Part shown: positions 194-59,495 of the stretch, one piece after another | Layout of the letters: every line of letters starts with the position of its first letter | How positions within the stretch are numbered: the first letter of the stretch is position 1 | Origin: a bacterium | GTDB taxonomy: Bacteria; Hinthialibacterota; Hinthialibacteria; Hinthialibacterales; Hinthialibacteraceae | Assembly (NCBI GenBank): GCA_963662285.2 | Contig: CAXXMV010000002.1 | Span: 1,408,001-1,472,000, forward strand | Reading direction: 5' to 3' | Length of the DNA: 64,000 nt | Translations under genes and position numbers: made by a program | The notes under the pieces: model-generated | The model's database searches: none | Told to the model about the DNA's origin: nothing | The model's input: the letters and a program-made list of their open reading frames with translations, nothing else

Positions 194-838
194 TTACTCA
201 GGAATTGTTTTTCTGATGATTTTGATGTTCTGTTCAATTGAATCTGAAGCTACATAGCAGGAATAAGCGTCTGAAACAGGCAATGCATTCAGAAACCACT
301 TTTTTTCTTCCAATAGGGCGGTGGTTTCATCCACCCAGGTCAGACTGGCGAGCGGCGCTGACATGCCGCGTCCATCGGCTTTGATAACACTCTCTTTTTT
401 TGTCCAGTATTCAAAAAAGGTATTGCATGAATCAGTACTATTTTGAATATTGCTCCACTCATCTTTAGACATGAATGATTGAAAATCTTCATATTCAATC
501 GGCCTGATTTGTTCTATATCAATTCCCAGGCTATTAGTATTACTGATTGCGCAAACCACCTGATTGCCTGAATGCGAAATGTTAAAATCTATTTCATCAT
601 TCAAATAGGGACGTCCATAGGATGTTCGTTGGATATTGAAAAAATCCTGTTGACTTAATCCTATTTCCAGGAATCCCTGCAAGAGAAGATGTTGACCATA
701 TAGGCCCGCATAGCGGTCTTTCCAGAAATGATATCGCAGTATTTTATCCTGAGTTTCGATAGGTAAGCATCGAAGAGAGTCATGCCATATATGATCTGGT
801 ATATGATCCGGGAATGAACTATAGAAAACCGTAATCAT
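194..838 (-). CDS. Sfp-type 4'-phosphopantetheinyl transferase
   Basis: Motifs YGRPY, FNISHSG, LGIDIE and WTKKESVIKADGRG; 214 aa; next to a PKS/NRPS cluster. Confidence 0.95.
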   Translation of the reverse strand: MITVFYSSFPDHIPDHIWHDSLRCLPIETQDKILRYHFWKDRYAGLYGQHLLLQGFLEIGLSQQDFFNIQRTSYGRPYLNDEIDFNISHSGNQVVCAISNTNSLGIDIEQIRPIEYEDFQSFMSKDEWSNIQNSTDSCNTFFEYWTKKESVIKADGRGMSAPLASLTWVDETTALLEEKKWFLNALPVSDAYSCYVASDSIEQNIKIIRKTIPE

Positions 839-843
839 GATTT

Positions 844-1497
844 CTAATCTTTATCATGAGTCTTTTTAATTTTAGCGGAAATCAGCAATCCCTCTTCAAA
901 CAAAGTTTTATAATGCTTGCGGACTTTGAAAGTATTGAAATCCAGGAAAGTTCCACCAGAGTCGAAATGTTGGATAAAAACTTTCCCTGTGGCGAATGTA
1001 AATGCAGCGGAAGTGAAGGGAAGGGCGGTTAAATAAGTCAATGCGCCAATTACCGGGACAAAAATAAAAGCCATCCTGACCAGTAAAATTGAAAGATAAA
1101 GAGGTCCGACCCCGCTCATTAAAGATGCGATAATTATTTTAGCTTTTTGATTAGAAAACGGGACATCATAGAGTTCAGCCAGTTGTTTTAGCGTGCTGGC
1201 TTGAAATCCAGCCATGCCGACAATATCCAGCAAGGGAATGGGGATTACTCCAATACCCATCGACCACAGCATGTTTTTCTTTACAATATTCAGGGCTTGC
1301 GTCTCACGTTTTGCAAAATCGATCTTTTCGCCAGCCTCAACAGGCGCTATATCCTCATCTTTGGCGGCATCTTTGGTAATATCTTTGGCATTATCTTTTA
1401 CTAATTGATCATCGGTTTCAACTGATGGGGTAAGAATGGCATTGGCGTCTTCCTCATCTGCGATTTGACAAAAGTTTTTCAAGTTACTTCGAGCCAT
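844..1497 (-). CDS. DUF697/YcjF-family membrane-associated protein with an acidic N-terminal extension
   Basis: Pattern GVIPIPLLD...[16 protein letters not shown]...VPVIG...[18 protein letters not shown] with hydrophobic segments. The start overlaps the parA stop; GAGGAGGTG Shine-Dalgarno upstream. Confidence 0.75.
1357..1398. repeat. Imperfect 12-bp tandem repeat (about 3.5 copies) encoding [14 protein letters not shown]
   Basis: Units atctttggcggc / atctttggtaat / atctttggcatt / atcttt, read directly from the sequence. Confidence 0.8.
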
Positions 1498-2131
1498 ATA
1501 TCACCTCCTCAATTAGATTACCTACTATTTTGATTTCTTCATAGGCAATTGATGCGGGATAAGCGTGACCTATCCAATCTCCTAAGCCGAAACAATCGAC
1601 AAAAGCGCTGCGCTGCCCCACGCCGGGGCTGATGGGTTCATTAAAGCCTTGCAATGCATCAGAAATTTCTTTACCAAATGAGGTCCTTCGATCTACCCGG
1701 CTGGGAACCAATAAGCACTGCGGTTGTCCATTGCGGATAGCGCGAGTTTTTTGCATCAATGCAATGGCTTTGGAAGTGGCGACGAAATCCGCTCCGGATG
1801 GCGTGACTGGAATAAGGAACAAATCACAGATGATCAAAGACGCTTCAGTGGCTTCATTGGTATGGGGTGGGAGGTCAATGATCAAGAGATCGGCAGTAAG
1901 ATTTTTGGCGTAGCGTATGAATTGCTCTGCATCACTTTGATTCTCAACCGGAAAAGTTTGTAAATGAATGGGGAGTTTACCACTTTTACACCAATCGGTC
2001 GCAGTTTTTTGTTCGTCCAAATCCAATAGAATAACCGACTTACCCCGTGAGGCCAATTCGCAAGCAATATTCACAGCGATTGTGGTTTTCCCGACACCGC
2101 CTTTTTTATTGCCAACGGCTATGCATTTCAT
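1484..2131 (-). CDS. parA: ParA/MinD-family ATPase, short type without an N-terminal HTH
   Basis: Deviant Walker [21 protein letters not shown] and PVTPSGAD. Start placed at MKCIAVG (ATG at 2131; 2140 is also possible). Confidence 0.9.
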
Positions 2132-2256
2132 GCAGTTCATTTCCTTTCCGGGCAAGCGTTTCTATTGTTTTATTGTTGATATTATCTAGAATAAGTCAAG
2201 CGAACTGTATACTTGTAACGCAACTCTTATCAAAAATCACTTTTACAAAAAATTAT
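2132..2256. promoter_or_regulatory. AT-rich divergent intergenic region between parA and asnB
   Basis: Position between two divergent starts; AT-rich. No specific promoter boxes are assigned. Confidence 0.45.
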
Positions 2257-4128
2257 ATGTGTGGAATATCTGGAATCTTCTCTTTCATTAATAAAAAACC
2301 GATAGAACAACCCATTCTGGAAAAAATGACCAGTCAGTTGGTGCATCGCGGACCGGATCAATCAGGGTATTATTGCAAACATGGCGTTGGCTTTGGTTTT
2401 AGACGTTTATCCATTATTGACCTGGAGAATGGGAATCAACCCCATTTCAATGAAGATCACACCATCTATTCGATATGTAATGGAGAGATTTACAATTATA
2501 AAGAACTGCGTACGCAGCTAGAATCAAAAGGTCACCGCTTCCGTTCGCATTGCGATGTTGAAATTCTGGTGCATTTGTATGAAGAATACCGGGAAGATTT
2601 TGTTAAACACCTCAACGGCCAATTTGCTTTTGCGCTTTATGATCAAAATCAAGACCGTCTTCTTCTAGCCCGCGACCCGATTGGCATCGCTCCGCTTTTT
2701 TATACTGTAGCCAATCAGCAACTGATTTTCGCCTCTGAAATAAAAGCAATCTTACAGCATCCGGCGGTTAAGAGAGAAGTGAATTTAACCGGCCTGGATC
2801 AAATCATGACGTTCCCCGGCCTGATAAGCCCGTGTACGATGTTTAAGGATATCTACTCGCTGCCGGCAGGACATGATCTTCGCATCCAAAATGGCGCTAT
2901 AGAGGATCATGAATACTGGGATCTGCAATACCCGGAAATAAATGACATTGGCCCGGTTCTTGAGGAATCGTCCTATCTCGCCTTATTGGAAGAGCATCTT
3001 TCGCAAGCGGTTCGCTACCGCCTTAATGCTGATGTTCCAGTCGGTTTTTATTTAAGCGGCGGGCTGGATTCAAGTTTGATCGCCTCTCTGATCCACCAAC
3101 TGCAACCGGATGTGAAACGTCATTCATTCTCGATAACTTTCACGGATAAGAATATCAGTGAACGGCAATATCAACAGATGATGGTTGATCAATTGCAATC
3201 AATCCACCATGAGCGGGAATTTGCATCCGAAGAGATTATCAACCGCTTGCAGGCGGCCATCTGGTATGCGGAATGTCCCCTGAAAGAGTCATATAACACC
3301 TGCTCGCTGGCGTTATCGAGCCTTGTTAAGCAGAATAATCTCAAAGTTGTTTTAACTGGCGAGGGAGCGGATGAATTGTTCGGCGGTTATGTCGGATACC
3401 GCTTTGATGAAACGCGGGATTCCAGTGATTACGATCTATACGATGTTCAAACCATGCTGGAACAGGAAACCAGAGAGTCGTTGTGGGGCGACCCGGATTT
3501 CTTTTATGAGCGTGATTACCATGAATTAAAGGATACTAAAACATCCCTCTATTCGCCTGATTTAGCATTAGGCTATTCATCTTTTGAAGCAGACAAGCAT
3601 TTTGTGATTGATAAAACCAAGATCAAGAACCGTCACCCATTTCATCAAAGATCTTACATTGATTTTAAGTTACGCATCGCCGATCACCTGGTTGCGGATC
3701 ATGGAGATCGCGTGGCATACGCCAATTCGGTTGAAGCCCGCTATCCGTTTCTGGATCACAAGTTCATCGAGGCGGTTCGTTTTATTCCACCTCAAATGAT
3801 GATCCAAAACGCTACGGAAAAATATCTTTTACGCCAATACGCCAGCCGGTATCTTCCCCGTCAAATTCTAGACCGGGAGAAATTCGGTTTTGTGGCGCCC
3901 AGCAGTTCATATTTTCTGAAGAACAAAGTTGAATGGGTCAACGATTTGCTCTCACCGGAAACCATAGCCCGCCAGGGTTATTTCAATGTTGATACGGTGG
4001 AACGTTTGAAAAACATGTATACCGAAGATGGAATGACCATCAACACAACCTTTGAGACGGATTGGTTGATGATTATTCTCACCTTCGGTATTTTTCTTGA
4101 CGCCTTTGATATGCCTTCATGCACCTAG
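2257..4128 (+). CDS. asnB: Asparagine synthase (glutamine-hydrolysing)-family amidotransferase
   Basis: N-terminal nucleophile MCGISG (start at 2257, not 2047), HRGPD, NGEIYNY, LSGGLDSS, LTGEGADELFGGY and EARYPFLD. Confidence 0.95.
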   Translation: MCGISGIFSFINKKPIEQPILEKMTSQLVHRGPDQSGYYCKHGVGFGFRRLSIIDLENGNQPHFNEDHTIYSICNGEIYNYKELRTQLESKGHRFRSHCDVEILVHLYEEYREDFVKHLNGQFAFALYDQNQDRLLLARDPIGIAPLFYTVANQQLIFASEIKAILQHPAVKREVNLTGLDQIMTFPGLISPCTMFKDIYSLPAGHDLRIQNGAIEDHEYWDLQYPEINDIGPVLEESSYLALLEEHLSQAVRYRLNADVPVGFYLSGGLDSSLIASLIHQLQPDVKRHSFSITFTDKNISERQYQQMMVDQLQSIHHEREFASEEIINRLQAAIWYAECPLKESYNTCSLALSSLVKQNNLKVVLTGEGADELFGGYVGYRFDETRDSSDYDLYDVQTMLEQETRESLWGDPDFFYERDYHELKDTKTSLYSPDLALGYSSFEADKHFVIDKTKIKNRHPFHQRSYIDFKLRIADHLVADHGDRVAYANSVEARYPFLDHKFIEAVRFIPPQMMIQNATEKYLLRQYASRYLPRQILDREKFGFVAPSSSYFLKNKVEWVNDLLSPETIARQGYFNVDTVERLKNMYTEDGMTINTTFETDWLMIILTFGIFLDAFDMPSCT

Positions 4129-4135
4129 ATCAACT

Positions 4136-5710
4136 TTAGAATGTTTCCCAGTTGGGTATTACGGTTGGTCCATAGGAACCTGTTGTGAATGACCATACGG
4201 GGCCTTGGACGCGACCTTTGGCGTCTGATACAGCATCCACTTTCCAATAATAAGTGGTGTTTTCATTCAAGGTATTAATGGTATATGATCTATCCGTGGT
4301 GGTATAATCGGCTGTTTCTGACATGCTTACGGTGTTATAATCCGTGCCGATCATGATTTCATACTTGTCGCCGTAGATTGTTCCGGCCTGCCATTTCAAA
4401 TCAATTATATTGCCTACCAGGAATTCTACATTGGCGCTTTGCGAAACTGGCGTGGGATAGTTAACCGGATAATCAATCACCATAGGAGTGATGGTATCCA
4501 GAATTTCAACTTCGGTTTCTCCATCCATAGTGTTCAGGCAGATAACGACAAAGGTTTCATCATCATAGAAATAATAGAGCAGGTCTTTATAACCATTGAT
4601 AGCGCCGCCATGACCCCGGCAATCGCCATAGGGCCGTTGACTCTGCATTAAACCGCCAACGCCATATTCCATGTTCATCCAATGGATATCAGCAGATACG
4701 TAATTCATCCATTTTTTACGGATTCCCTTGTTAATGATTATGTCTTCAGTAAAAATGGCCTTCAAAAAGCGCATCAGATCCCAGGGAGTTGAAATAATCG
4801 CTCCTGCCGCCCATGCGAAGGATGGATTTAAGATTGTAACATCGTTCCAGTTATCCAATGTTCCAGTGGGTTCAAAAAGAAGATTGTTTTTTGTGTACCC
4901 ACGCATCATGCGATCAGGAATCTGTTCATCAACAGCAAAATGGGAATCCTGCATATCTAATTTGTCAAAAATACGGTTTTTAATTTCGTCCTCGATCTTA
5001 TTGCCTGTGACTTTCTCAATAATCATTCCCAGGATCATATAATTGGTATTTACATACCACCATTTAGGCTCTGGCGTTGCTTCATCGGCAGGTATTTCAA
5101 ACAATGCTGTTTGATAAGGATTCGGATATGTCGCTCCGTATTCAAAATACTCCAATTGATTCGTGCCTTCATTGGCAAATTGCAAAAGTTGAGATGGCTG
5201 CCAAGCATATAAGGGATTTGTATTAACAGTTTCCTGAAGCGACTTATTTTCCAGATACCCAGGTAAACCGGATGTCATTTGCAGCAAATCCTTAATTGTT
5301 ATTACATCGGCGCTTATTTCCAATTTTACTTCGCCTGTCAAATATTTATCAACCGTATCATCAAAGCGAATTAAGCCTTCTGATTCCATTTGAAGAATCA
5401 CCATAGCAGTGAACATCTTTGAAACGCTGCCAACCCTGAATTGAGCATCCGGCGTTGGAGGCGCCAAGGTATCAAGATTAGCCATGCCGGATAATCCGAC
5501 CCGCACTCCCCATTCCGGAGAATGCACAATCATAATAGCTCCCGGCGTCTTATCATCGTTGGTGAATTCATCCAGCTTATCCTGCCAGGTTTCCGGGAAG
5601 GCCTCATATTCAAGATCATTCGACGCGGAAAAAACAGGATGCAGCCCCATAGTTAACAAAGATAAAAATAAGGTAAGACATAAAGCGTTTCTACTGAGTA
5701 ACCTATACAT
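4136..5710 (-). CDS. Exported beta-lactamase/PBP-family serine hydrolase (D-peptidase-like) with a C-terminal FN3-like domain
   Basis: SxxK (FRVGSVSK), YxN (WYVNTNY) and GHGG motifs; signal-peptide-like N-terminus from ATG 5710 with AGGAG upstream; C-terminal LNENTTYYWKVDAV...GPVWSFTT module. Confidence 0.88.
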   Translation of the reverse strand: MYRLLSRNALCLTLFLSLLTMGLHPVFSASNDLEYEAFPETWQDKLDEFTNDDKTPGAIMIVHSPEWGVRVGLSGMANLDTLAPPTPDAQFRVGSVSKMFTAMVILQMESEGLIRFDDTVDKYLTGEVKLEISADVITIKDLLQMTSGLPGYLENKSLQETVNTNPLYAWQPSQLLQFANEGTNQLEYFEYGATYPNPYQTALFEIPADEATPEPKWWYVNTNYMILGMIIEKVTGNKIEDEIKNRIFDKLDMQDSHFAVDEQIPDRMMRGYTKNNLLFEPTGTLDNWNDVTILNPSFAWAAGAIISTPWDLMRFLKAIFTEDIIINKGIRKKWMNYVSADIHWMNMEYGVGGLMQSQRPYGDCRGHGGAINGYKDLLYYFYDDETFVVICLNTMDGETEVEILDTITPMVIDYPVNYPTPVSQSANVEFLVGNIIDLKWQAGTIYGDKYEIMIGTDYNTVSMSETADYTTTDRSYTINTLNENTTYYWKVDAVSDAKGRVQGPVWSFTTGSYGPTVIPNWETF

Positions 5711-5732
5711 ATTTCTCTCTCCTGTTCTTACA

Positions 5733-8700
5733 TTATTGTTTATTCGATAAATCATCCTTAAACAATCCTACAAACCTTTTTATAGTATCAGGTTTGTGGA
5801 ACGTTTGATGATAACGAAACCCTATTTCTAACTGGCCATCAATAATCATCGCCTCGATTGCCAGTAATGATGATGACTTGAAACTCCGGTCAATAGATGC
5901 AAAACATAGATCATTTATACATGATACATCAGTGTTTGGTAATTGGGTGGAAATTTCTCCAATATAATTAACGCTGATTTGAGGTTGATTTTCTTCTGCA
6001 TCAAGATGCTCATTGGAATGTGAAGGAAAATAATGTAGTAATCCATACCCTATCCCACCTCCAGGTACATCCATGAGCCTTTGATGAATTGACTCTTTTC
6101 TTTCTTCTACATTCAGAAGGAAAGGATAATTGGCGGTAAACCATCCTACAGTGCGGCTTACATCAATATCTTCAATCAGATGCTGGCGGCCATGACCGGA
6201 AAGAGTTATGCGAATGGTTGAACCATCCAGCCATTGCCCTAATGTGGAAGACAATGCTGCTAAAAGTCCAACCAAGGCATTCTTTTTTGGAGAATGATTT
6301 AAAAAATCGGCTGTTTCATTTTTGGAGAGTTGCAGGGATACGACATCAGTTTGACCATATAACATGGCGCCGGTATCAAAATCGCATGGGATGTTTGATG
6401 AATGCGCGTCATCAATTTTTCGCCAATAGTTGATCTCCTGTTCTGTTATTTGTCCTTTGGAATAGTGTTGCAATTGATCCGCCCACTGGAAATAAGAAGA
6501 TGTCGGGGGGGGAAGTTGCACCGATTTGTGGTCAAGAATCTGTTGATAGGCTTCGATCCAATCGTCTAGCAGAATTCCACCCGAAACGGCATCGGTCGCG
6601 CAATGGTGGATAATCAAGGACAAAACATCACAATCTGGCAAACGAAACAGGACGGCTTTTAAGAAAGGCGGCTGACTCAAATCAAAATTACAATACTGTT
6701 CCTCAATAGTTTGCTTCAGGGAAGTAATGGCGCCATGATTTTGCATGAGATCAACTTTTTCAATTTGGCAAAGACCATTAAGTTGAACTGGTTGCTGCAT
6801 GATTGAATCATGGTTCCAGATAAATTGCATCCGTAATGCATCGTGATGATCCAGAATGGCATTAAGCGTTTGATTGAGTGCATCCTCATTAAGACGCTGG
6901 ATTGTACGTAATGAATATATATGGCAAAGATTGCGATGATGTTCTTCTGAGTGATCAAAGAAACTTTGTTGGATCGGTGTAAGAGGAACTGGATTTTTGG
7001 AATAAAAGCCATTAGTTACGGGGGCTGATTGTTTAAGATTTTCGGATATTTTAGTTATGGTTTCGAATTCAATGAGGTCTCTTAAACGGATATGGATTTT
7101 TTGCTTTCTCAGTCTGTTAACAACCTGGATGGCTTTTAACGAATCGCCTCCAAGATCAAAAAAGGATTGGTTAATACTAACTTTTCCATTGTTCAATACC
7201 TCTGACCAGACATCTGCAATAGATTTTTGCAATTGATTTTGAGGTAAGAGCGTTTCATTGAATGCACAAAGTTCTTGATAGACCTGTTTAAATAACTGTT
7301 TCCGGTCTACCTTGCCATTGGATGTCAGGGGAATGGCGGGTAGAAAAATAATCTTGGATGGAATCATATAATGGGGGATGCGTTTTTTCATAAAAATGCG
7401 AAGCGTCTGTTCATCCACTTGATCATTCAAGACGCAACAGGCAATGATTCCATTTTGCTGTTGGTTCACAATAGCGACTGCTTCGCGAACAGCTTGATGT
7501 TTCATCAAGCATGCTTCCAGTTCGCCTAATTCGATGCGATAACCACGAATTTTTACTTGAGAATCAATTCTGCCTATAAAATCAATTGATCCATCCGGCA
7601 ACCATCGACCGACGTCTCCAGACCTATAGAGACGCCGATTGGATTTAGTAATAATATTAATATCATTTTTTTCCGTTAACTCAATATTCAAAAATTTTTC
7701 ATCATTTATTTCCGGTCGGTTTAAATATCCCCGCGCTAAGCTTTTGCCTGATATGCATATCTCTCCCGGCGCGCCAATAGGGGCCGGTCTGAGAAAGCGG
7801 TCAACAATGAATACATTTATATTGGCCAATGGAAAACCAATCGGAATCCCATAAGGATACTCTTTATCAGGATGAACTGGCTGCATACATGTACATACCG
7901 AGTTTTCGGTTGGGCCATAGGCGTTAAAAAAGCGGCATGAATCGCGATAATGCAATGCATCCTCTATATTGACCGCCTCTCCCGCAGTTAACATAACCCG
8001 CAAGGTGGGAAATTCCGCCTTCTCAAATGCATTCAATAACGAGGGAGGAAAAGTCATGACGCTGATATTCTGTTCGGTGATGTAATCGTGGAGCAAGGTG
8101 ATATCTTCTTTGATGCGTGATGGAAGTAATACCAAGATCGACCCGGATAAAAGAGTCATGAATATCTCAGATAATGAAGCATCGAAGGCGCAGGAGGCGG
8201 CTTGTAGAATACGATCTTGATCCTTTATGCCAAATACCCGGATTTGCTCCCGGATCATATTTATAAAAGCTCCATGTTCTATCAACACTCCCTTTGGAAT
8301 GCCCGTTGAACCGGAGGTGTAAATGATATAGGCCAGATTGTTTTCATCAATTTTATTGGGAATGTTAGTCTGAATATTATTGTTGATGCTAGCGGGATCA
8401 ATAATTTGACAATGTTTTGATACGTTTAGCAATGGAGATAATTCGGAAGAACTTAATATCAATCGACAACCACTATCCTGAAGAATAAAGTTGATGCGTT
8501 CTTCGGGATATCCTGCATCAAGTGGTAGATAGGCGCCTCCGGCTTTCATGATTGCTAATAGAGATATGATCAGCCATTCGTTTTGCGGAAAAAAGACAGC
8601 CGCAAATTCTTCTTTTTTTAATCCGTATTGATGTATAAGATGATGTGCTATCTGGTTGGCTGATTGGTTTACCTGCGCATAAGTCAAGGATTGGCTTTCG

Positions 8701-19100: not shown

Positions 19101-22100
19101 TGAGAACCGTCACTTGATGTTGTTTGATTAGAGCCAGAAATTTTTGGGTATCACGTACATCTTCTTTTTGAGCGACAACCACTTTGCCGCCATATAACAA
19201 TGCGCCATACATCTCCCATACGGAAAAATCGAAACAGAAAGAATGGGCGATAATCCAGACATCACTTTCGCAGAAGTCAAAATCATGCCGCCCATTCTTC
19301 ATCAAGCGAACCACATTACGATGGGAAATCATGCAGCCCTTAGGCTTGCCTGTTGAACCGGATGTATAAATCACATAAGCATTGGCATCCATATCAACTG
19401 GGATAGAAGGGTTGTCGGTATTTTTACTATCCAAGGTAGAAAGCGCAACCATCTTGCGCCTAATGGATGATGAATAACTATCAAGTTCCATCACATCCGT
19501 TATGATAACTGCGCATTGCGAATGCTCAAAAATATACTCCAACCGCGCAGCGGGATAATCCGGGTCCATGGGGACATAGGTTCCACCTGCTTTTAAGATG
19601 CCTAGGAAAACCGCAATAGCCTGTTCGGAACGGTTTAAGAGTCCACCGATGCGGTCGCCGGATCTAACGCTATGAGACTCAATAAGAGCATGAGCGATAG
19701 CGTTGGCCTTTTGATTCAGTTGCTGATATGTTAAAGATTTTTCACCGCAAACAACAGCGATGCGCTCAGGAGTTTTGCATGCCTGTTCTTCAAACAAGGC
19801 GGTTATATTTTTATCAGATGGGTAGTCAGCAGCGGTCTGGTTCAGCGCTGCAATAGATTCTATCTCCCGCCCGGAGCGTACATCTATTGTGAAGAGTGGC
19901 CGGTCTGGATCACTGGTTACCAGTTCAAGTATCTGTACGAAATATTCAGACCAGCGCTGGATGGTTGGTTGCTTGAACAGCTGAGCGGCGTAAATAAAAT
20001 GCAACGACAGTTGATCGGCGTCTTCGTACATATCCAAGTAGAAATCAAACATAGCTGTATCGCTATGAACATGATGATCGGTGAACGTCAAATCCTTGAT
20101 GCGGAAAGCCCGATCATCCGTTTTTTCATAAGCCAACATGGTATCAAAAATGGCATTCAAATGTTTGGGACGGTCGCCATTCATTTTCTCAGCCATCTTT
20201 TCAAATGGGTAATCCTGGTTATCATACGATCTGGAACATGCTTCTTTCACCTGTAAGAGAAACTCAGCAAAGGTATTCTTACCATCAATCCGGGTACGGG
20301 CGATAATAGAATTGACGAACATACCAACTGTTTTAGATAACCTGGCATCCAGCCGCCCTGATGCAGGCATCCCTACCAGCAAATCTTCCTGCTGCGTCAG
20401 TTTGTAAAGCAGAATCTTATAACAGGCCAGTAGTACCATGTACATGGAAACGCCATTGGTTCTGGCTAGATTGTTTAGTTTATCTTTCAGTCCTTTGGGG
20501 ATTTCCCGGAAAATCATACTGCCGGAATAATCAAACTCCTGAGGACGCGCAAAGTCGGTTGGTAAATTCAAAACCGGCAACGGCGCGGCGAGCGTCTCTT
20601 GCCAGAAAGCCTCCTGCTGCTGGTATGCTGCGCTATCTTGCCATTCATCCAGAATCTTCACGCCATCAGAATATTGATATTCAACCGGCTGCAAAGCGAC
20701 GCCTTGATACAAAGACATCAATTCCGTAGCCATGACGGTAAACGAAATTCCATCCAGCGCAATATGATGAGCATCACCGAGCAATAGATGTCTGGTTTCA
20801 CTTACCTTCAATAAAGCAATGCGCAACAGGGGAACTTTGCTCAAATCGAAAGGCCGGATAAAGGAGCGTATGTTTTGATCAATGCTCTCTTCGGTTGAGT
20901 CGATTCGTTCAATCGAAAAGCGCGGCTCGCCTCCCACATATTGAACCCACTCGCCTTCCATCCACAGAAAGCGGGTGCGAAGGCTATCGTGCCGCCGGAT
21001 TATTTCGGCAAAACCGTCTTCCAACAGGTCTACATCCAATGGACCATCGATCCAGAAAGCCTGGGTGATATGATAAGCCAACTCGCCGCCCGGTCTCTGA
21101 GCCATGGCAATCATGCGGCGTTGTACTGAGGTTATAGGATAAAATTGATTTGATGCGCTTTCAGTTTTAATATATTCAAATCCGTTGGCGCGGATTTCGT
21201 ATATGGACTGCTTGATAGCATTTTCGATCAACGCAATATCTTCATTACTATGGGCTGTGGATATGAAATTGATGCGCCGTTCCCAGGCGTACACGCCTTT
21301 CATCAGCATTAAGAGGAATAGGATTTCCATCTCAAGAGGTTGATTATCATTGATACCCACAGGAACCAGGCGCCATTGTGAGGCGAAGAATTGCGCTCTT
21401 ATTGGAACCTGCTCTTTTTCAAAGAAATAATTTAAGGATAAACATAAACGCCCGGTTTTCTGGTTCAACTCTTCTTGTAGTGCAGGGCCTTTTTTTTGGA
21501 GTTCACTCAGAACCGCATAGGCGCCAGCCATACTCATAGGGTTGCGGGCGAAGGTTCCACCAAAGAAAATCATATCAGCATGAGGGCCGGATTGATCGCC
21601 ATATTGCCAGTATCCGCCATCAATATAATCCATATACCTGGCTTTTCCCGCAATAATGCCGACGGGCAATCCTCCCCCGGCGATTTTACCATAGGTTATA
21701 ATATCGGCCTGTACGCCAAACCAGGCTTGCGCTCCTCCCGCATGGATGCGAAAACCATTTATCATCTCGTCAAAAATCAGAGCAGCGTTGCATCTCTCGG
21801 TTATTCTTCTTAATTTGCGCAGAAACAGTTGCGGTTGTAAATCCGGGTTCCGGCTTTGAACCGGTTCTACCAGGACTGCGGCCAGTTCATCTTTCAAGCC
21901 TTCTATGATGGACAAAGATTCAGCGCTGTCATAATCCAGTAGAACCAGATTCTCAATCATGCCGACCGGGGTGCCAACGCTAAAGGGAACCAGTCCGTCT
22001 TCAGTTTCTGTCGCCAGTACGCCGTCAAATATCCCATGATAGGAATTCTTAAATAGTACAACAGTATTTTTCCCAGTGGCGGCGCGCGCCAGACGGATGG

Positions 22101-25100
22101 CGACCATGACGGATTCGGTACCGGTGTTGCAAAAGGTAACCCGCTCAACGCCGGTCAACTCATGAATCAAGGTCGCCACTTTTCCTGTTAAATCAGATTG
22201 CGGGCCGATTTCAAAACCTTCGGTTATCTGTTTATTGAGAGATTCAACCAGAAAAGCAGGCCGGTGCCCGAAGATGTGAACCCCCATTCCCATGGCGATA
22301 TCCACATACTCATTGCCGTCTTTATCCCAGAACCGCGCCCCCTGTGAATGATCGGATACGATTGGGTATTTCGCTTCTTTAAGATGATTCCAAAAAGAAA
22401 GGGTGTGTTTCCAGTCAGCCAGAATTTTCCTTGATTGCTGGGTAATCTCTTTGGAGGTTGAGGTCCGTTTTATATATTGATCTACTACGGTTTGAATCCA
22501 TGCTTTTTGAGTATCAGTGAGAGTGTTTAATTTTTTTAAGTTCAGTGAACGGAATTCTTCAGCTTTCTTGGTATTCCGCACTGTCTTTACCGATGTTGAT
22601 TGTTTATCTTCTGTTGCAACTTTCTTTTGAACGCTAGAGGATACGGTCAATGATGCTGCGTCTGTTTTGCCCAATACATTTAGTTGTTGCTGGATCAATC
22701 CTTGCATCGAAGCCATATTCTGATTGGATAAAGCGGACAATTGCTGAAGTTGTTGCTGCATTAACTTAACAACCGCGTTATCCGTATCAAGTTGCTGTAG
22801 AGACGGCGGGATTGCAATATCCAAATTTTGTTGGAAGGCCTGTTGTTGCGGCGCATCCTGCTCAACAGCATCAGAAGAGATGCTTAAATTGGGAGCATTA
22901 ACGGCTATGCATTGCGCTACATCATCCAGAGTTTGCAGTTCATTAAAGAACTGGCTGACTTTAAGTTCGATGCCATATTTCTTTTCAATGGTTTGAACAA
23001 TCTTAAAAAGTAATAGGGAATCAAATCCCATTTCCAGCAATCTAACATCCGGTTGAATATCACCTAGATCAAAACCGCCAATGTCTGCAACAAGTTTAAT
23101 TAAATCATTTTTTAATTTGTCATTCATTATTTCTGTGCAATCCTGTTCCGGATTATCATGTTTATTTTTGTCATGATTCATACCCTCATCAGTGGCGACA
23201 ATTTCGTTGTGCTTATGTTCGTTATTTGCTGAAGGAAGCAGGTTAAGAAAATATTTTTTACGTTCAAAAGGATAGGTAGGAATATCTGTTTTTTGATAAG
23301 TGGCGCCCGGGTAAATTTTCCGCCAATCCATATCCATGCCATTTACATACATGCGTCCAAGGCATGAAAGGATGCAACGCATATCTTGCTGTTTTTTCTG
23401 AAGTGAATTGAGCCACAAACATTTCTTATCGGTTTTGCACTGTCTGCCGAAAGAGGCCAGCGTATGTGATGGCCCCAATTCTAAAAAGAGATCAAATCCA
23501 TCTTTCAGACAAGAAGAGACGGCGTCATAAAAACGCACCGGACTGACGATCTGCTTACCCCAATAGACAGAGTTGACTGGAGTATTTCCATCGATCAAAT
23601 CTCCAGTAAGCGTTGAATAAAACGGAATTACAGGAGATGAATACGAGATGGTTCGCCCGGTCTGTTCAAATTCATCGACCATTGGTTCAATCAACGATGA
23701 ATGAAAAGCGTGCGAAACGGGCAGGAATTTACAAGGTATCTTATGTTGTTCAAAGGATTGCGCGCATTGCTTCAGCGCATCGCTATGCCCGGTGATGGTA
23801 ACCCGCTCAGGCGTGTTGACCGCAGCGATATTAATGACGCCCTTGTGCTCACCGATCAATTCAAGAACCTGTTTTTCAGAGGCGAACACAGCCGCCATAC
23901 TACCGTTGGGCGCGAGAGCCTGCATTCTCTTGCCGCGCTCCGCCGCCAGGTTTAAGGCGTCTTCCAAAGAGAATACGCCCGCCGCATAGGCCGCCGCATA
24001 TTCTCCAATGCTATGCCCGATAACCGCTACGGGTTCAACGCCCCATGAACGCCACAATGCGATCAAAGCGTATTCCAGCGCGAATAATGCGGGCTGGGTA
24101 ACCGCCGTCTGGTTCAGTTCTTCTTCTTGGGCGTTATCGGCGAACAAATAATCTAATAATGATTTCTCAAACCAGGGTTGAAGAATCTCGCTGCATTGAT
24201 TTAAAGCCTCACGGAATACAGGCTGATCTTGATACAGTCCACGTCCCATACCGACATATTGCGCGCCCTGTCCTGAAAATAAAAACACGATTCCCTTATT
24301 TCCATAGCACACTGATTCATTAGAGATAAATGTGTTTTTCGCCTTTTTATCTTTGATATATGACTGCAACTCCTCAGTAAATTCCAGCGCCGTACCTGTA
24401 ACCACCGCCATCCGTTTGGGGAAATGACTTCGTCCCGCTGAAGCGGTAAAACAGATATCCGAAAGGGGCGAAGGTGGTTCAGCAAATGTATTGATGTAAC
24501 GGGAAGCCAATTGATCCAGCGCACTCTCTGTCTTGGTGGATAGAGTTAACAAAGAAACAGGCGGGCAGGGTGGATTGGTTTGCTGACGGGGCGGTTGGCA
24601 ATACTCTTCTATTACTACATGGCAATTGGTTCCGCTAAGTCCAAATGAACTAACGCCACCGGCACGGGGGCTATCATTGGCAGGCCAATCTCTTAGAGTT
24701 GTATTGACCTCTATGGGAATCTCATCCCACAGAATATGCTTGTTCGGCTCTTTATAATGCAAACTGGGGGGGATTTGTTGATGATATAAAGATAAAACCA
24801 ACTTTATGACGCCAGCAACGCCCGCCGCTGCTTCAGTATGACCAATGTTGGTTTTCACTGAACCAAGGTATAAAGGATCATCCAGCGTCCGTGACGCTCC
24901 GAACACAGCGTGAAGCGCGTTGACTTCAATCGGATCGCCTAGTATCGTTCCAGTTCCATGAGCCTCTATCAGGTCGATGGCGCCTGGAGATATTCCAGCA
25001 TTGTTTAACGCTTCATGGATAATCCGGGTTTGAGCCGGGCCATTGGGGGCGGTCAGCCCGTTACTGCGTCCATCATGATTAACCGCACAACCTTTAATTA

Positions 25101-25983: not shown

Positions 25984-26041
25984 TTTCTCCCCATATATGA
26001 TTCATATAAAAATACATAACCTTCAATTTCCAGGCTGCATA

Positions 26042-32000: not shown

Positions 32001-32635
32001 ACCAGAGAGGAGGAACAAGCCGTATCCACCGCCATACTGGGGCCTTCAAAACCAAAGGTATAAGAAATTCTTCCTGCTGCGGGAGCGAAACAGGTTCCCG
32101 TCAAAGAATAGGCGTCTATTATTTCATTCTGACCCGAATGCCGGTGCGCCTGTGTATAATCGTCGCTTGATATCCCGACATATACTCCGGTGCGGCTCCC
32201 CATCAGTGAGGAGATATCAATACCGGCGTTTTCAAAGGCTTCCCAGGTTACTTCTAATAATAATCGTTGTTGAGGGTCTAGACTTAAAGTCTCTTTACCT
32301 GAAATGTTAAAGAAATGTGAATCAAATTCATTAACCGGACAAGTTAAGAAATTTGCATGACTGGCATGAGTAGTTCCAGGATTACTTATCAATGGATCAT
32401 AATAAACGTCTGCATCCCAGCGATCCGGTGGAACGGGAACACAGGCGTCCTTACCATTCATTAAAAAATCCCAGTATAAATCAGGATCATTGCATCCACC
32501 GGGAAATCTACAACCCATCCCGATGATTGCGATAGGTTCACGTTGCGCGTTCTCCAGCGTCTGCGCTTTTTTTTCGGCTTTTTTTAAAGCAATAAAGGTT
32601 TTTTTTAAGATTTCATTTCCTGATGGCTGATTCAT
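26042..32635 (-). CDS. Type I cis-AT PKS, fully reducing module KS-AT-DH-ER-KR-ACP
   Basis: KS DTACSSS; AT GHSIG/HAFH; [12 protein letters not shown]; [12 protein letters not shown]; [13 protein letters not shown] and YAAAN; ACP GFDSLM; N- and C-terminal docking helices. Confidence 0.95.
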
Positions 32636-32645
32636 TCCCGACTCC

Positions 32646-35489
32646 TCAATCTATATCTAATTCCGCTTTAATTAGTTGTTCTAAGTTTTCCACGTCAAGG
32701 TCATTTATATAATCAAATCCCATATCCTCATTTAAGTCTTGATCAATCAATTTTTCTGCATTATCAGTAATGGATTGCGGTTCTTTTTCATCCGGCAAAT
32801 TAAGGGAATTCTCAATTTGGGGCATCAAATAATCGGCTATTTTTAGGATATTTGGATAATTAAAAAGAAAGGTGGGATTCAAATTAAGATGAAAAACCTT
32901 TTCCATACAATTGCAAAATTCAACTGCGGATAAAGAACTGAAACCTTGTTCATGCAATGGAGTATTCTTATCAAAAACAAATGATTCCTGTCCGGTTACA
33001 TCACAAGCAGTCGCATTTATAAAATCGAGCAGAATCTTCTTCCGCTGTTTGGGCTGTGAATTACAGAATGTCTTAATCATGGTTTGCTGTTCTTTCTTGT
33101 CAGAACGCAAAGGAGCAATATTGTTATGCTCCATACTAGAATCACGATAACAACGCTGCCTTTGAAATGGATACAATGGAAGAGAAATGGCTTTGAAATG
33201 GCGGTCGCCATAAAAATTCCGCCAATTCACATCATTGCCATACTCATAAAAAAGTGCAATAGCATTCACGGCCCTTTCTTCAAAACTCCCATCCACGTTT
33301 TCACAAACGGGCAGATGCTTATAATCCTCTATTTTACACTCATTATCAATAGATTTAAATTTCGCTTGAGCTACATGAAAAAGAAAGTCAACCTGGTTAT
33401 TGATCAACGATTGAAGGATGTCTTTTTCAATAGTGTCTTTCATAGATATTACGGGAACGTCAATGTTATGATTCCCCGAACATCCATCCTTCAATACAGT
33501 TGACTCTTTTTTTAGAACCATGCCAATAGCTTTATCCAAATCAAGTTTCCCGGTCAAACAGCCCCCGGCCCATTCACCTGTTCCTGAACCAATAATCATT
33601 CGGGGAATAATCCCCCACGACATGAACAATTTTCCCAGCGCGTAATTAAGAACAAACTCGTTTAATTCTATTATGGGGATTTGTTCAGGAATGGGATAAT
33701 TATCAAGTAAATATCGGGAATATGAAAAATCGGTATATTGCTGGATGCAATGGTCGCAGGCATCAATTCCCTCATGGAAAGCAGCGTAATGCTGGTAAAA
33801 ATACCTGATTTCACTGCCCGTCAGATTAGCCGCACCTTCAATAATAAAGCATCCATTTAATTTCGTTGTTTTGTTAAATATTGGTTCGCAAATGAATCGA
33901 TCCAGTTGCCCAGATATATCGTTTATGTTTTTCCCGCTAAAAAACTTTCGAATCGGGAAATGGGTTCTTCCCATACTCGCAGCATAACCCAGGTCGCTTA
34001 TGCATTCCAAGGAATCGCATATTCTTGATTTATAGGCTTGCGCCAAATCAATCAGCGCCTCTTTCGACTTGGCTGATATGGGCAATATGGATAAACCGGC
34101 ATTACTATCACTATATTGTTGTTGCGCTGATTTATCCTCATTCTTCATCGTATGCGATTCGGCATTGAAATCTTCTAAAATCACATGTGCATTTGTCCCC
34201 GTAATACCAAACGAACTGATTCCTGCGTAACGGATTTTATCCTGCGCAGGCCATGAAACCGCTTCTTGGGGAACGCGGAATGGAACCTTATCCCATTCAA
34301 CAGCATCTACCGGATTGTTAAAATGCAAATTCGGGGGAATTGTTTCGTGTTGCAGGGCGAGAATGGTCTTGATCATCCCCGCCATACCCGCTCCCGCCTC
34401 TAAATGCCCGATAACAGTTTTGGCTGAACCGATCAGCAGGGATTTCTCATGGTTGTTGTTATGAGAAAACACCTCCTCCAGAGCATGCAATTCTGCTGCA
34501 TCTCCTAATGGATTGCCGGTTCCATGCGTCTCAATATAATCAATTTGGTCGGGTTGCAAATCCGCTTTGCGTAAGGCATCCTGAATTAATTGAACCTGAG
34601 CGTCTTGTTTTGGAGATGTAAAACTTGAACCAAAACCTCCATGATTGACGGATGAGGCTGGAGATACCGCAAATATCCGGTTGTTATCATTCATAGCGTC
34701 AGGGATGCGCTTCAATAAAACTACGCCGCAACCCTCAGAGCGAACATAACCATCCGCAGATGCATCAAAGGCCTTGCAGCGTCCGGTGGGTGACAATACG
34801 CCTAATTTGGATAAATAAATATATGGATTAGGAGATAAAAGACAGTTGACCCCGCCCGCCAAGGCAACATCACATTCCCCGTTTCGCAAGGATTGGCAGG
34901 CGTAATGAAAAGCTACTAATGAGGAAGAACAGGCTGTATCTATCGATAGAGACGGCCCTTCAAATCCATAAAAATAGGATAACCTTCCGCTGGCTGAACA
35001 TCCCATGCCGCCCAGCCCTGAATATAGGTCAATTGAATCTGTTTGATTAGACCATATCTGTTGACCCAAACAATCATTGGTGGTGATGCCAATGAATACC
35101 CCGACTGGTTTATTTTTAAGCGTCGAAGGACATATACAGGCGCTTTCGAATGTTTTCCAGGAAACCTCCAATAATAAACGCTGCTGTGGATCTAATGCAG
35201 ATGCTTCATTGGGTGAGAGTCCAAAAAATGAGTAATCTATATCCCGGATATCCACATCTTGCAAAAAACCGCCCCATTTGGAGTTCGTCTTGCCTGATGC
35301 AGCTAAATCTTTTGAATAAAAATCTTCCCATCCCCAGCGTTCCAATGGAATCTCTGAGATTGCATCCTCACCATTACATATTAATGACCAATATGAATCA
35401 GGATCATTGGCGCCGCCAGGAAAACAACAGCCTATACCTACTATTGCGATTTTTTCTAAGTCTCTTCTTGCTAAAACTTTTCTTACCAT
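32646..35489 (-). CDS. Type I PKS first module: KS-degenerate AT-ACP
   Basis: KS has intact DTACSSS, HGTG and GHLE. The AT-like region is shortened, has GSGTGEW in place of GHSxG and lacks HAFH/YASH. ACP GFSSLS; C-terminal docking helix. Start at 35489 or 35519. Confidence 0.88.
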
Positions 35490-35784
35490 AATAATGTAAT
35501 TTAAACCTAAATTGACCATTTTTACTAGACAATACCAATCATCTTCTGAATAACGCCAGATAATAATTTTTGTCCTTAGAAACTGGGATTATTTAATAAG
35601 AATCGGCCTGGGGAAATAAAAAAGCGCTAAAGTACTTAAAGCAAAGAGGCTTTTAATGATTTTCCTTACAAACAGATTAAAAAACAATTAAAATCTTCAC
35701 GAATTAACTGGCAGTGACAGTGTTTTGAATGATCTTGGTGTAGAATATCTTACATTTGTATATTTTTCTCGCGGATAAAACATT
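35490..35784. promoter_or_regulatory. Divergent promoter region between the PKS/NRPS operon and the ABC exporter
   Basis: About 290 bp of AT-rich non-coding sequence between divergent starts. Confidence 0.5.
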
Positions 35785-37410
35785 ATGGAAATTTTCAACT
35801 ATTTGAAATCCGAAGTTAAACTTCTAGCGCCTGGAAAACTCGTTTTATATGCATTTTCAGGTTCTATCCATTTCGTTATTATCCTTTTACTTATCATTTC
35901 CGCACTATCTGTTCCAGATGTTCATTTCAAAAATGTCTTACTATTTTCGTTATTGATCTATGCATTTATACGTCTTCAAAAAAACGCAATGGATGAATCA
36001 GTCCGTATTATCGATAACAATATCATCCAAATCCGCCTCCGGTTGGTCGATCAAATTCGCAACCTCACTCTTTCTTCTTTTGAAACTATTGATTATAACC
36101 GCTTTATCACAATTTTAACCCAAGAATCTCAGCATATTTGTGAATTGGGTAATCTTTTTCCCCGACTTTGTTCATCTATCTTCCTTTTTTGTATCGCTTT
36201 TTTGTATATTTCCATAATTTCCTTTCCCGCATTCTTGTTATCCATTCTATTTATTATTTGTGGAGTTCAATATTACAGGATAAACCGGGCAAAACATGAG
36301 AAATACCTCATTGAAGCCAGTCATAAGGAAGACTCTTTCTTCGAACTTTTGAATCAGCTTCTTGATGGATTCAAGGAATTAAAAATCCATCGGGGCAAAA
36401 ACGATGATTTATATAACAATTATCTTCTTAAGTGCGCCAAAGAAGTAGAAGAATTGAAGGTTTTTTCTTCCTCGCAATTGTCCAAATCAATCATTTACGC
36501 CAATCTTTTTTGTTATATATTTATTGCCTTCCTGATCTTCATTTTTCCTGAGATTTTAGAAATCACCCAATCACAACTGATTCAAATTATTGCGATATCC
36601 CTCTTCATCACAACCGGACCCATTCAGGAAATCGTAGGCTCATTTCCTTTTATCGAACGCGCCAATATGGCCATTAAACACCTGGATATGATGGAGAAGC
36701 AATTACAGGAGTGTGAGTTTGATACTGTATCCGGGTTGGAAGAAGCTAATCTTCCCCTGCCTTTCGAGTCACTTCATCTCACCAATGTCAGTTTTCAATA
36801 CCAATCAAACATTGCCGATTCCAATTTTGGAATCGGACCTATTGATTTTGAAATTAACCAAGGCGAAATAATCTTTATAATGGGGGGCAATGGCGCCGGA
36901 AAATCAACCTTTTTGAAAGTACTGGTTGGATTATACCCGCACTGTGAAGGCAATATCGCATGGAATGATATATCAATTTGTCAACAAAACCGGACAGGTT
37001 ATCAAGCAAATTTTGCGGTTATTTTTCAAGACATGCACCTTTTTGACCGGCTATATGGCATCAAAAAGATTGATGTGGAAAAAGCAGAACAATTATTGGT
37101 AACAATGAAACTAGCAGACAAAACAACAATCACAGAAGATGGAGCAATTACTAATATTCGATTATCCGCAGGACAAAAAAAACGCCTGGCTCTTATCATT
37201 TCCGAAATGGATGATAAACAAATCTATGTGTTTGATGAATGGGCTGCTGATCAAGACCCCAAATTCAGAAAATATTTCTATGAAGTCTACCTTCTCGATC
37301 TAACCAAACAGGGAAAAACCATCATTGCCATCACCCATGATGATCATTATTATCATATTGCCGATCACCTTTTTAAAATGGATTACGGCGTACTGACTAA
37401 ACTTAGGTAA
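35785..37410 (+). CDS. Cyclic-peptide export ABC transporter (PvdE/SyrD/YojI family), fused TMD-NBD
   Basis: N-terminal transmembrane helices, GFKELK, Walker A GGNGAGKST, LSAGQKKR and the family signature FDEWAADQDPKFR. Confidence 0.93.
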   Translation: MEIFNYLKSEVKLLAPGKLVLYAFSGSIHFVIILLLIISALSVPDVHFKNVLLFSLLIYAFIRLQKNAMDESVRIIDNNIIQIRLRLVDQIRNLTLSSFETIDYNRFITILTQESQHICELGNLFPRLCSSIFLFCIAFLYISIISFPAFLLSILFIICGVQYYRINRAKHEKYLIEASHKEDSFFELLNQLLDGFKELKIHRGKNDDLYNNYLLKCAKEVEELKVFSSSQLSKSIIYANLFCYIFIAFLIFIFPEILEITQSQLIQIIAISLFITTGPIQEIVGSFPFIERANMAIKHLDMMEKQLQECEFDTVSGLEEANLPLPFESLHLTNVSFQYQSNIADSNFGIGPIDFEINQGEIIFIMGGNGAGKSTFLKVLVGLYPHCEGNIAWNDISICQQNRTGYQANFAVIFQDMHLFDRLYGIKKIDVEKAEQLLVTMKLADKTTITEDGAITNIRLSAGQKKRLALIISEMDDKQIYVFDEWAADQDPKFRKYFYEVYLLDLTKQGKTIIAITHDDHYYHIADHLFKMDYGVLTKLR

Positions 37411-52908: not shown

Positions 52909-52985
52909 TACCTAACCTCAACCATTGTGTCTGATTTCATGGTTTTATAAATTATCCTGTATCTATTCACTGTTTTTGCAATCGA

Positions 52986-58382: not shown

Positions 58383-58518
58383 GGCAGCATTATTTCCGGC
58401 GCGAAGCCTTTATTTCTGAATGGTCTCTATTTCAATTATCGTACTGCATATACTTTTTCAGGCATAAAACAAAACTCTATCAATCGTCAGTAAATAAGTG
58501 ATTGAGCAATGATCAAAA

Positions 58519-59466: not shown

Positions 59467-59495
59467 GTCTCACCTTTTTTATCTTAATATTAAAA

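Follow-up and report, generated by a model that had tools for sequence, protein, structure and literature searches.

A hybrid polyketide synthase-nonribosomal peptide synthetase (PKS-NRPS) cluster that carries no thioesterase raises two questions: how the finished chain leaves the assembly line, and what the conserved neighbouring enzymes do with it. Such a cluster fills the left 37 kb of the 64,000-nucleotide stretch analysed here (the window; positions 1,408,001 to 1,472,000 of contig CAXXMV010000002.1, assembly GCA_963662285.2, from a bacterium of the Hinthialibacterota). Genes were assigned by open reading frame (ORF) calling and by Pfam and NCBIfam scans of the window proteins, and these confirmed the four collinear megasynthase genes described in a first-pass annotation of the DNA. 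All four lie on the minus strand between 5733 and 35519 and encode, in order, KS-AT°-ACP (pksA, AT° being degenerate), KS-AT-DH-ER-KR-ACP (pksB), KS-AT-ACP-AMT-C-A-T-E-C-A-T-C-A-T (hybC) and C-A-T followed by an E-like domain (nrpsD). Since ORFs of 957 to 5269 amino acids with ordered domains cannot arise by chance, the cluster is real. We propose that it represents a conserved hybrid family without thioesterase, in which a terminal epimerase-fold domain (Et) would release the chain, an AsnB-type amidotransferase would amidate it and a secreted S12-family hydrolase would act on it after export; taken as a whole, this pathway seems to us evenly balanced between right and wrong.

No thioesterase (TE) domain of the Pfam family PF00975 was found in any protein of the cluster, and a search of the whole genome (7.29 Mb, 8 contigs, 92.5% complete) returned only three partial matches of at most 26.7 bits. 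NrpsD ends in a 430-residue domain of the condensation superfamily, which was named Et. A profile built from five orthologous Et domains matched E domains best (BacC with 2.3e-121, then TycB, GrsA and TycA), and the C domains scored far lower. The His motif is retained, as HHxxxDA in seven of the eight family members and as HHxxxDG in the remaining one. The catalytic Glu of EGHGRE is replaced in all eight: by Ser in the genome of the window (G000) and in G042, by Thr in three further genomes of the phylum (G004, G013, G020) and in Sphingomonas, and by Ala at the loci L027 and L023. The internal E domains of the same clusters, on the other hand, have kept it in every case (7/7). In E domains the catalytic residues are the His and the Glu, and the E892A exchange made GrsA about six-fold less active (PMC8905534). 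The loss of the Glu in Et is a consistent signature of altered function, but it does not prove that epimerisation is lost. Et is considered as the release domain because no TE exists and it is the only candidate in the cluster. That it releases the chain, by hydrolysis or cyclisation, is a tentative assignment with somewhat less than an even prospect, while the remaining probability is shared by the S12 enzyme and an unlinked hydrolase.

The S12 gene directly follows the last NRPS gene in all clusters, overlapping it or lying within 25 nucleotides. In five genomes (G000, G004, G013, G020 and G042) the N-terminus of the protein, as read from the sequence, is charged, with a hydrophobic segment next to it and then a cleavage motif of small residues, which is of the AxA type in G004 and G013; the Sphingomonas N-terminus is less typical, hydrophobic and Ala-rich. 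The motifs SxxK (GSVSK), YxN and HGG are invariant in the four proteins compared. Among solved structures the nearest to it are those of alkaline D-peptidase (4y7p, 1.3e-41), S12 peptidases, the R61 DD-peptidase (2.5e-34) and a D-amino-acid amidase, whereas the match is much poorer for ClbP (3e-15) and for SurE, a PBP-type thioesterase (2.9e-8). The last 109 amino acids gave a weak fn3 match (22.3 bits against a cut-off of 25) and a match to Pur_ac_phosph_N, homologues carry the precomputed families PF00041 and PF16656, and the stretch is polar, beta-rich and soluble-looking. The enzyme should thus be exported, and being secreted it should be unable to off-load the synthetase. Relatives of this family cut or deamidate D-aromatic residues, and the exported product is the likely substrate. 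This step may serve either maturation or self-protection. Two variants of the gene were observed in the family: in an alphaproteobacterial metagenome-assembled genome (MAG) two tandem S12 genes stand ahead of AsnB (L024, 1055-6183), and the G013 protein (L020, 15657-17645) has 662 amino acids, with an extra C-terminal extension of about 120 residues after the FN3-like domain.

The amidotransferase of the cluster has GATase_7 and Asn_synthase domains and a Met-Cys start at residue 71 of the long ORF, which aligns with residue 1 of the orthologues. A second AsnB is encoded elsewhere in the genome, the cluster enzyme being a dedicated paralogue. Its orthologues (55-64% identity) adjoin the S12 gene in G004, G020, L024, L025, L027 and L028. 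A secondary match, below the cut-off, was to TIGR03104, the N-acetylglutaminylglutamine amidotransferase family. AsnB-family enzymes that amidate peptide carboxylates are known, and most likely the cytoplasmic paralogue would amidate a free carboxylate of the peptide.

A cyanobacterial origin of the genome, suggested at first by GC content and sensor kinases, was rejected: no photosynthetic reaction-centre gene (Photo_RC) is present, and RpoB is nearest to proteins of MAGs labelled Candidatus Hinthialibacter sp. (86% over 70% of the query) and Candidatus Omnitrophota (82%). Going by these submitters' labels, the lineage is probably OLB16/Hinthialibacterota-like. The cluster family was found in at least nine genomes from three phyla. 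Four of the 35 genomes of the phylum have the complete AMT-C fusion (G000, G004, G013 and G020, from two families), and the same order is present in G041 and G042. The six C-type domains and the three type-I KS domains of the cluster are the only ones in its own genome. Synteny of pksA, pksB, hybC, nrpsD and the S12 gene is retained at 36-64% protein identity in G004, G013 and G020, and at 32-55% in Sphingomonas sp. BK036 and G042; for the HybC orthologues the identity is 47-49% in the three same-phylum genomes and 41% in Sphingomonas. Almost all genes of the set are common to G004 and G020, including the AsnB and 4'-phosphopantetheinyl transferase (PPTase) genes that G013 does not have: in the 60 kb examined around the G013 cluster AsnB, ParA, DUF697 and PPTase were not found. 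When 185,579 species genomes were scanned with the S12 alignment, eight loci were obtained, two of them being G004 and G020. At five of the other six (in Sphingomonas sp. BK036, a Sphingomonas MAG, an alphaproteobacterial MAG, a MAG of 68% GC and a Bryobacterales MAG) the gene directly upstream is nrpsD-like and ends in Et, and the contig of the sixth is too short to tell. AsnB lies directly downstream of the S12 gene in four of these five (L024, L025, L027 and L028), and the contig of L023 ends before it would be reached.

The BK036 locus contains the PPTase, a 5125-residue hybrid gene, a C-A-T-Et gene, the S12, AsnB, SPFH and ABC exporter genes, a reducing PKS and a KS-ACP first gene. The hybrid protein has the same domain order as in G000, including the E domain after module 1 (E1), and the locus repeats all four A4 pocket motifs. 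In this strain the first PKS gene (L031-L034, joined 51090-53292) reads in two overlapping frames, with KS residues of about 20-169 in one of them and the rest in the other, which may reflect a frameshift, an error of sequencing or wrong ORF calling in DNA of 68% GC. The family is evidently old or mobile, under selection, and present in a cultured strain. A search for relatives with the PksA protein gave 11 pattern matches and no relative. For a 6-kb query no RNA run was listed, and two DNA runs from one study contained it. In another genome of the phylum an AMT domain with 43% identity to residues 55-520 of the query lies in a 2925-residue ORF (G031:C34:8041-9441), the following C domain being unmatched; it may belong to a different AMT-containing cluster.

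PksA has an intact KS (DTACSSS, HGTGN, GHLE), and no loading module was seen ahead of it among the cluster ORFs, the line beginning with this KS. When its AT region was aligned with the AT of module 2, the protein of G000 read GSGTGEW where the latter has GHSIGEY; the region is also degenerate in G004 and G020 and is deleted in G013, G042 and Sphingomonas, the BK036 gene having no AT remnant at all. By these alignments PKS module 1 is without a functional AT, and since it has none of its own, its ACP must be loaded in trans. Loading by FAAL or an acyl ligase was not in evidence, as the window ORFs contain no AMP-binding domain besides the four A domains, nor was one noticed in the conserved flank. 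In PksB all motifs are intact (HxxxGxxxxP, DxxxQ, LDD, the catalytic Tyr, HAGTGGVG), and the AT is of the malonyl type with HAFH. The third KS module sits in HybC, again with an in-cis HAFH-type AT. The KS-AT-ACP-AMT-C junction, which the first-pass annotation had assigned to the beta-amino-acyl type, proved contiguous in one ORF (residues 34-2042 of the 5269, Pfam order). The docking helices suggested there were also borne out: the megasynthases carry acidic C-terminal tails and coiled-coil-like N-terminal heads, and the docking tail motif of PksA is kept in six of six orthologues.

To obtain the specificity codes, 16 A domains were aligned with MAFFT, and the A4, A5 and A10 motifs of the A3 domain served as anchors. 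The resulting codes of A1 to A4 (DFWNIGMVHK, DVRHFAILAK, DAWTIAAICK and DASTLAAVCK) were exactly those that had been read by eye. By published code tables these would mean Thr for A1, an Arg/His pair suggesting an acidic substrate for A2, the GrsA-type Phe code for A3 and a Tyr-type code for A4. The assignment of A3 is supported independently, because among solved single domains it matches TycA (414 bits) and GrsA (399 bits) best, both of which activate Phe, other single A domains reaching at most 330 bits. For A2 the comparison with solved structures was uninformative, since two A domains add up to the score of its apparent best match, LgrA. No papers were returned when the literature was searched for the code strings. 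The four code classes are identical in all five full clusters (by the alignment in four of them, by the A4 motifs in Sphingomonas), and the predicted core, beta-aminoacyl-(D)Thr-X-Phe-Tyr, is conserved across the family.

Regarding the stereochemistry, C1 and C3 have LCL-like N-terminal motifs (QRRLW/Y), while C2 and C4 are DCL-like (QxGMLFH) and form one subtype. The D-Thr put forward earlier is consistent with the sequence of G000, because E1 after module 1 is intact (HHLIIDGVSW, EGHGRA) and the next C domain is DCL-like. The layout of the E domains varies: one follows module 1 alone in G000, module 3 alone in G004, and both of these modules in G013 and G020. As E1 and E3 vary among the orthologues in this way, the C-terminal residue would be the sole D-position possibly common to all clusters. 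Since the upstream E domains come and go, C2 and C4 were also considered as dual E/C domains, to which the N-terminal motifs give no support.

While the order of the condensations and the redox domains are established by the sequence, the course of synthesis proposed from them is as follows. KS1 would take an acyl starter directly from CoA or from a fatty-acid ACP and add a malonyl unit, the ACP of module 1 being malonylated in trans by the AT of module 2 or by FabD, and the beta-keto group would be left unreduced. Module 2 would add a second malonyl unit and reduce it fully, and module 3 a third one, whose beta-keto group AMT would convert into the 3-amine. C1 would join the resulting 3-amino-(7-oxo?)-acyl unit to Thr, which would be epimerised, and then probably an acidic residue, Phe and Tyr would follow, to give a 3-amino-(7-oxo?)-acyl tetrapeptide. 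After the release and amidation described above, one or more ABC exporters would carry the product out, and the secreted S12 hydrolase would then act on it outside the cytoplasm. The ketone of module 1 and the amine of module 3 would be 1,5-related, which could allow ring closure of the N-terminal unit to a piperideine (cyclic imine). An extended version, in which a neofunctionalised Et has replaced the TE, AsnB masks the carboxylate and the exported S12 enzyme unmasks or cuts the product, by a prodrug logic unrelated to that of ClbP and possibly with the piperideine head, we consider unlikely.

Several points weigh against the proposed pathway. It is a prediction from sequence. The genome is incomplete to the extent given above, so a TE could sit in the missing part. 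The E892A mutant of GrsA is still an epimerase, with about one sixth of the activity (PMC8905534), and Et could likewise be only an epimerase, with an unlinked hydrolase releasing the chain. When other domains of the Et type were sought, common E domains crowded out everything else: a search of 1.84 billion representatives with the Et profile and one of a word-indexed collection with the Et region both gave nothing but ordinary NRPSs with several E domains, and the latter missed known orthologues as well. These searches say nothing on how widespread the Glu-less variant is. We know of no E-fold domain that releases chains, and no search for one was made. C4 is DCL-like, yet in G000 no E domain follows module 3, so the stereochemical logic is not fully consistent. 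Residue 2 is probably acidic, a reading taken from the Arg/His pair and the published codes, and the survival of the unreduced keto group of module 1 is assumed.

Three other explanations were weighed against release by Et. In the first, which we regard as unlikely, Et is a weakened working epimerase that gives a C-terminal D-Tyr, an unlinked hydrolase or, slowly, water releases the linear chain, and the S12 enzyme is a D-stereospecific self-resistance peptidase of the BogQ/TriF kind, which degrades product that comes back into the cell envelope. The residual activity of GrsA E892A (PMC8905534) fits this, the peptide is predicted to contain D-residues, and S12 enzymes with signal peptides that cut beside the D-residues of lipopeptides are documented (Lip3/Lip7, BogQ, TriF; PMC12903863). 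However, AsnB would be left without a role, and the loss of the Glu from every terminal domain (8/8) and from none of the internal ones (0/7) would be unexplained; moreover, with E1 and E3 coming and going, only the C-terminal D-position could be shared by all clusters.

In the second, the S12 enzyme would be a SurE-like PBP-type thioesterase that off-loads the chain from the last carrier domain after C-terminal epimerisation, as a head-to-tail macrolactam closed with the beta-amine. An NRPS that ends in T-E(-like) without TE and is directly followed by a beta-lactamase-fold gene, as found in all clusters, would agree with this, and so would the match of the exporter to the 'cyclic peptide export' family TIGR01194; PBP-type TEs are described as stand-alone head-to-tail cyclases (PMC11735501). 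The Sec-type signal peptide in five orthologues and the hydrophobic, Ala-rich N-terminus in Sphingomonas should place the enzyme outside the cytoplasm, however, and its similarity to SurE is weak (2.9e-8) beside that to alkaline D-peptidase (1.3e-41). In addition, its C-terminal domain is FN3-like (by a weak match) and that described in PMC11735501 is lipocalin-like, and Et is without the Glu needed for efficient epimerisation. Thus we hold this explanation to be very unlikely. That the cluster is decaying and makes nothing is hardly credible, in spite of the lost AT motifs, the variable set of E domains, the crippled terminal E domain, the missing TE, the two overlapping frames in the first PKS gene of BK036 and the lack of a listed RNA run, because all window ORFs are intact, including that of 5269 residues, the catalytic motifs are kept in KS, AT, DH, ER, KR, AMT, C, A and T, and purifying selection is indicated by the persistence of the same layout and the four code classes over three phyla at 32-64% protein identity. 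Release by Et, followed by amidation and extracytoplasmic processing, is the pathway that we retain.

Features of the PKS-NRPS cluster in the window (positions are those of the window; domains are listed after the gene that contains them).
Feature	Position	Strand	Evidence and remarks
Sfp-type 4'-phosphopantetheinyl transferase (PPTase)	194-838	-	PF01648 1.3e-13, PF22624 4.9e-12; orthologues with 38% identity beside the G004 and G020 clusters
DUF697 membrane protein	844-1497	-	PF05128 1.8e-7; homologues with 40-49% identity adjoin the G004 and G020 clusters
ParA/MinD-like P-loop ATPase	1484-2155, likely start 2131	-	PF13614 3.3e-19; NF041546 150 bits, under its cut-off of 180
AsnB-type glutamine-hydrolysing amidotransferase	ORF 2047-4128, true start 2257	+	TIGR01536 472.8 bits against a cut-off of 267.1
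S12 beta-lactamase-fold serine hydrolase with FN3-like C-terminal domain	4136-5755, likely start 5710	-	PF00144 4.9e-46
nrpsD, NRPS module 4, C(DCL-like)-A(DASTLAAVCK)-T-Et, 1490 aa	5733-10205	-	Pfam Condensation x2, AMP-binding, PP-binding
Et, terminal epimerase-fold domain	5736-7025	-	HHCATDA; SGHGRQ
hybC, hybrid PKS-NRPS, KS-AT(HAFH)-ACP-AMT-C-A1-T-E-C-A2-T-C-A3-T, 5269 aa	10174-25983	-	Pfam on two halves, motif map, codes
E1, canonical epimerisation domain after NRPS module 1	16684-18030	-	TIGR01720 105.7 bits against a cut-off of 74.2; HHLIIDGVSW, EGHGRA
AMT domain, class-III aminotransferase, GSA-aminomutase-like	21412-22371	-	PF00202 3.2e-44; NF000818 1.1e-71; PLP-lysine motif TYGKIAGGGLP
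pksB, PKS module 2, KS-AT(HAFH)-DH-ER-KR-ACP, fully reducing, 2197 aa	26042-32635	-	Pfam and motifs
pksA, PKS module 1, KS-(degenerate AT)-ACP, C-terminal docking tail, 957 aa	32646-35519	-	KS and PP-binding, no Acyl_transf_1 (Pfam)
AT remnant in pksA	33150-33887	-	GQG, GHSxG serine and HAFH all missing
ABC exporter, fused TMD-NBD, divergent from the PKS genes	35785-37410	+	TIGR01194 'cyclic peptide export' 302.7 bits against a cut-off of 286.2

The exporter has orthologues of 48-50% identity in G004, G013 and G020, and the ParA-like ATPase has orthologues of 62-64% identity in the G004 and G020 clusters; the latter was not found in the 75 kb around the Sphingomonas cluster. The ParA-like ATPase, the DUF697 protein and an SPFH protein are conserved accessory proteins of this lipopeptide cluster.

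The right border was placed at 37410, since the PQQ-like gene that follows (37523-39052) is without counterpart in the related clusters. On the left, the conserved gene block extends about 6.3 kb past the edge of the window. In the 20 kb left of the window (L030) the genes between 13654 and 20178 encode a 395-residue lipoprotein-like protein without any Pfam family, a second DUF697 protein, a second ABC exporter of the cyclic-peptide type, an SPFH/Band-7 protein and a solute-binding protein (SBP_bac_6/8). Homologues of the first four adjoin both the G004 and the G020 cluster, and for the solute-binding protein one was matched only beside that of G004; the SPFH and ABC genes have homologues also in Sphingomonas and G042.

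The first-pass annotation had called the cluster apparently complete, which does not hold: conserved genes lie left of the window, there is no TE, module 1 is without a functional AT and no loading domain was seen. It had also called the cluster an undescribed orphan, and indeed no described cluster with this layout was found in the literature, but the cluster is not unique to this genome, with its family in at least nine. Its accessory PPTase, amidotransferase and exporter are present, its 'peptidase' is a secreted D-peptidase-like S12 enzyme, its Asx/Glx at residue 2 would follow from an Arg/His pair in the code, and the DUF697 and ParA-like ORFs had gone unmentioned. The E-like end of the assembly line, the missing TE, the dead first AT, the secretion of the S12 enzyme and the leftward extension of the block were all absent from it. 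On the whole, what it observed is confirmed and its interpretation is partly supported.

Outside the block, PQQ_2-type beta-propeller proteins are encoded on both sides, at 37523-39052 of the window and at 9734-13564 of L030, the left one being a protein of 1276 amino acids with a malectin domain; both genes are absent from the related loci. Between 39193 and 48676 minus-strand signalling genes encode a 783-residue protein with four receiver domains, a 1673-residue hybrid histidine kinase (three PAS, GAF, HisKA, HATPase, two REC and Hpt) and a 678-residue receiver protein, with no counterpart adjoining the related clusters. The remaining part (48745-63961) holds five large minus-strand ORFs of 1387, 1798, 315, 837 and 657 amino acids, approximately 15 kb of unannotated coding sequence, with no Pfam family at 1e-5 except one weak HEAT_2 match in the 1387-residue ORF.

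If the proposed pathway is true, it would represent a solution to chain release not described for bacterial NRPSs, by an E-fold domain without the Glu, and a new pairing of cytoplasmic amidation with extracytoplasmic processing by a D-peptidase. An uncultured candidate phylum (OLB16/Hinthialibacterota-like) would also gain its first concrete and conserved natural-product pathway; until now only surveys have dealt with this phylum, as one 'enriched in NRPS clusters' (bioRxiv 10.1101/2023.06.28.546814). Since the same cluster is present in the cultured Sphingomonas sp. BK036, the product and the inferred steps are testable by genetics and liquid chromatography-mass spectrometry (LC-MS). No published cluster with the same layout was found in the literature, a provisional result obtained without MIBiG comparison and with most subscription journals outside the search. 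A Sphingomonas lipopeptide paper (PMC12062506) describes PCR fragments only and is unrelated.

Comparison with known systems covers the beginning, the junction and the end of the line. The microginin (mic) synthetase likewise extends a PKS-made N-terminal beta-amino acyl unit by NRPS modules. Microginins are linear lipopeptides ending in Tyr, and the free beta-amino acyl head and aromatic C-terminus predicted here resemble those of the aminopeptidase inhibitors microginin and bestatin. The mic synthetase consists of FAAL, ACP, one PKS module and NRPS modules, with a halogenase, a methyltransferase and a monooxygenase domain (PMC9594780). In contrast, the present cluster has no FAAL, tailoring domains or TE and has three KS modules, the first without AT; it has in addition an E-like end domain and the S12, AsnB, SPFH and ParA/DUF697 genes.

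The MycA-type (mycosubtilin/iturin) and puwainaphycin lines likewise have a class-III AMT at the PKS/NRPS interface, which turns a beta-keto thioester into a beta-amine. These lines load a fatty acid by an acyl ligase or FAAL, and at their end a TE closes the ring through the beta-amine, whereas here the chain comes from three PKS modules, the AT lies in cis and a TE is missing. The MycA aminotransferase, with Gln as amine donor (PMC3870968), and the puwainaphycin-type AMT module (PMC4219810) are the precedents. The junction of the cluster belongs to this MycA/microginin/puwainaphycin class, and it occurs here apart from the acyl-ligase or FAAL loading and the terminal TE.

At the end of the line the likeness is to the SurE-type systems (surugamide, desotamide, ulleungmycin, pentaminomycin), which also combine a TE-less NRPS and a C-terminal E-type domain with an adjacent beta-lactamase-fold gene; the enzyme here differs in its signal peptide, its weakly FN3-like C-terminus and its kinship to D-peptidases and R61, and the terminal E domain differs in being without the Glu. 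ClbP, BogQ and TriF are encoded in the producer's own cluster, and the ClbP-type lines begin with a starter C-A(Asn)-T-E that makes N-acyl-D-Asn, their peptidase having three C-terminal transmembrane helices. ClbP, BogQ/TriF and Lip3/Lip7 share with the present enzyme the S12 fold and an export signal, and they act on D-residue lipopeptides outside the cytoplasm. Unlike in the ClbP systems, the first NRPS module here has the code DFWNIGMVHK and follows a PKS, with no N-acyl-D-Asn starter, and a membrane-helix tail is missing from the hydrolase. Both BogQ and TriF are D-stereospecific peptidases, resistance being named in the title of the paper, and Lip3/Lip7 are a precedent for activation, with KGG as motif III where the present enzyme has HGG (PMC12903863). 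What sets the S12 enzyme apart from all of these is its pairing with an AsnB paralogue wherever the contig reaches, except in G013 within the 60 kb examined. The core chemistry of the cluster is ordinary; what is unusual is the chain start, the chain release and an accessory set conserved across phyla.

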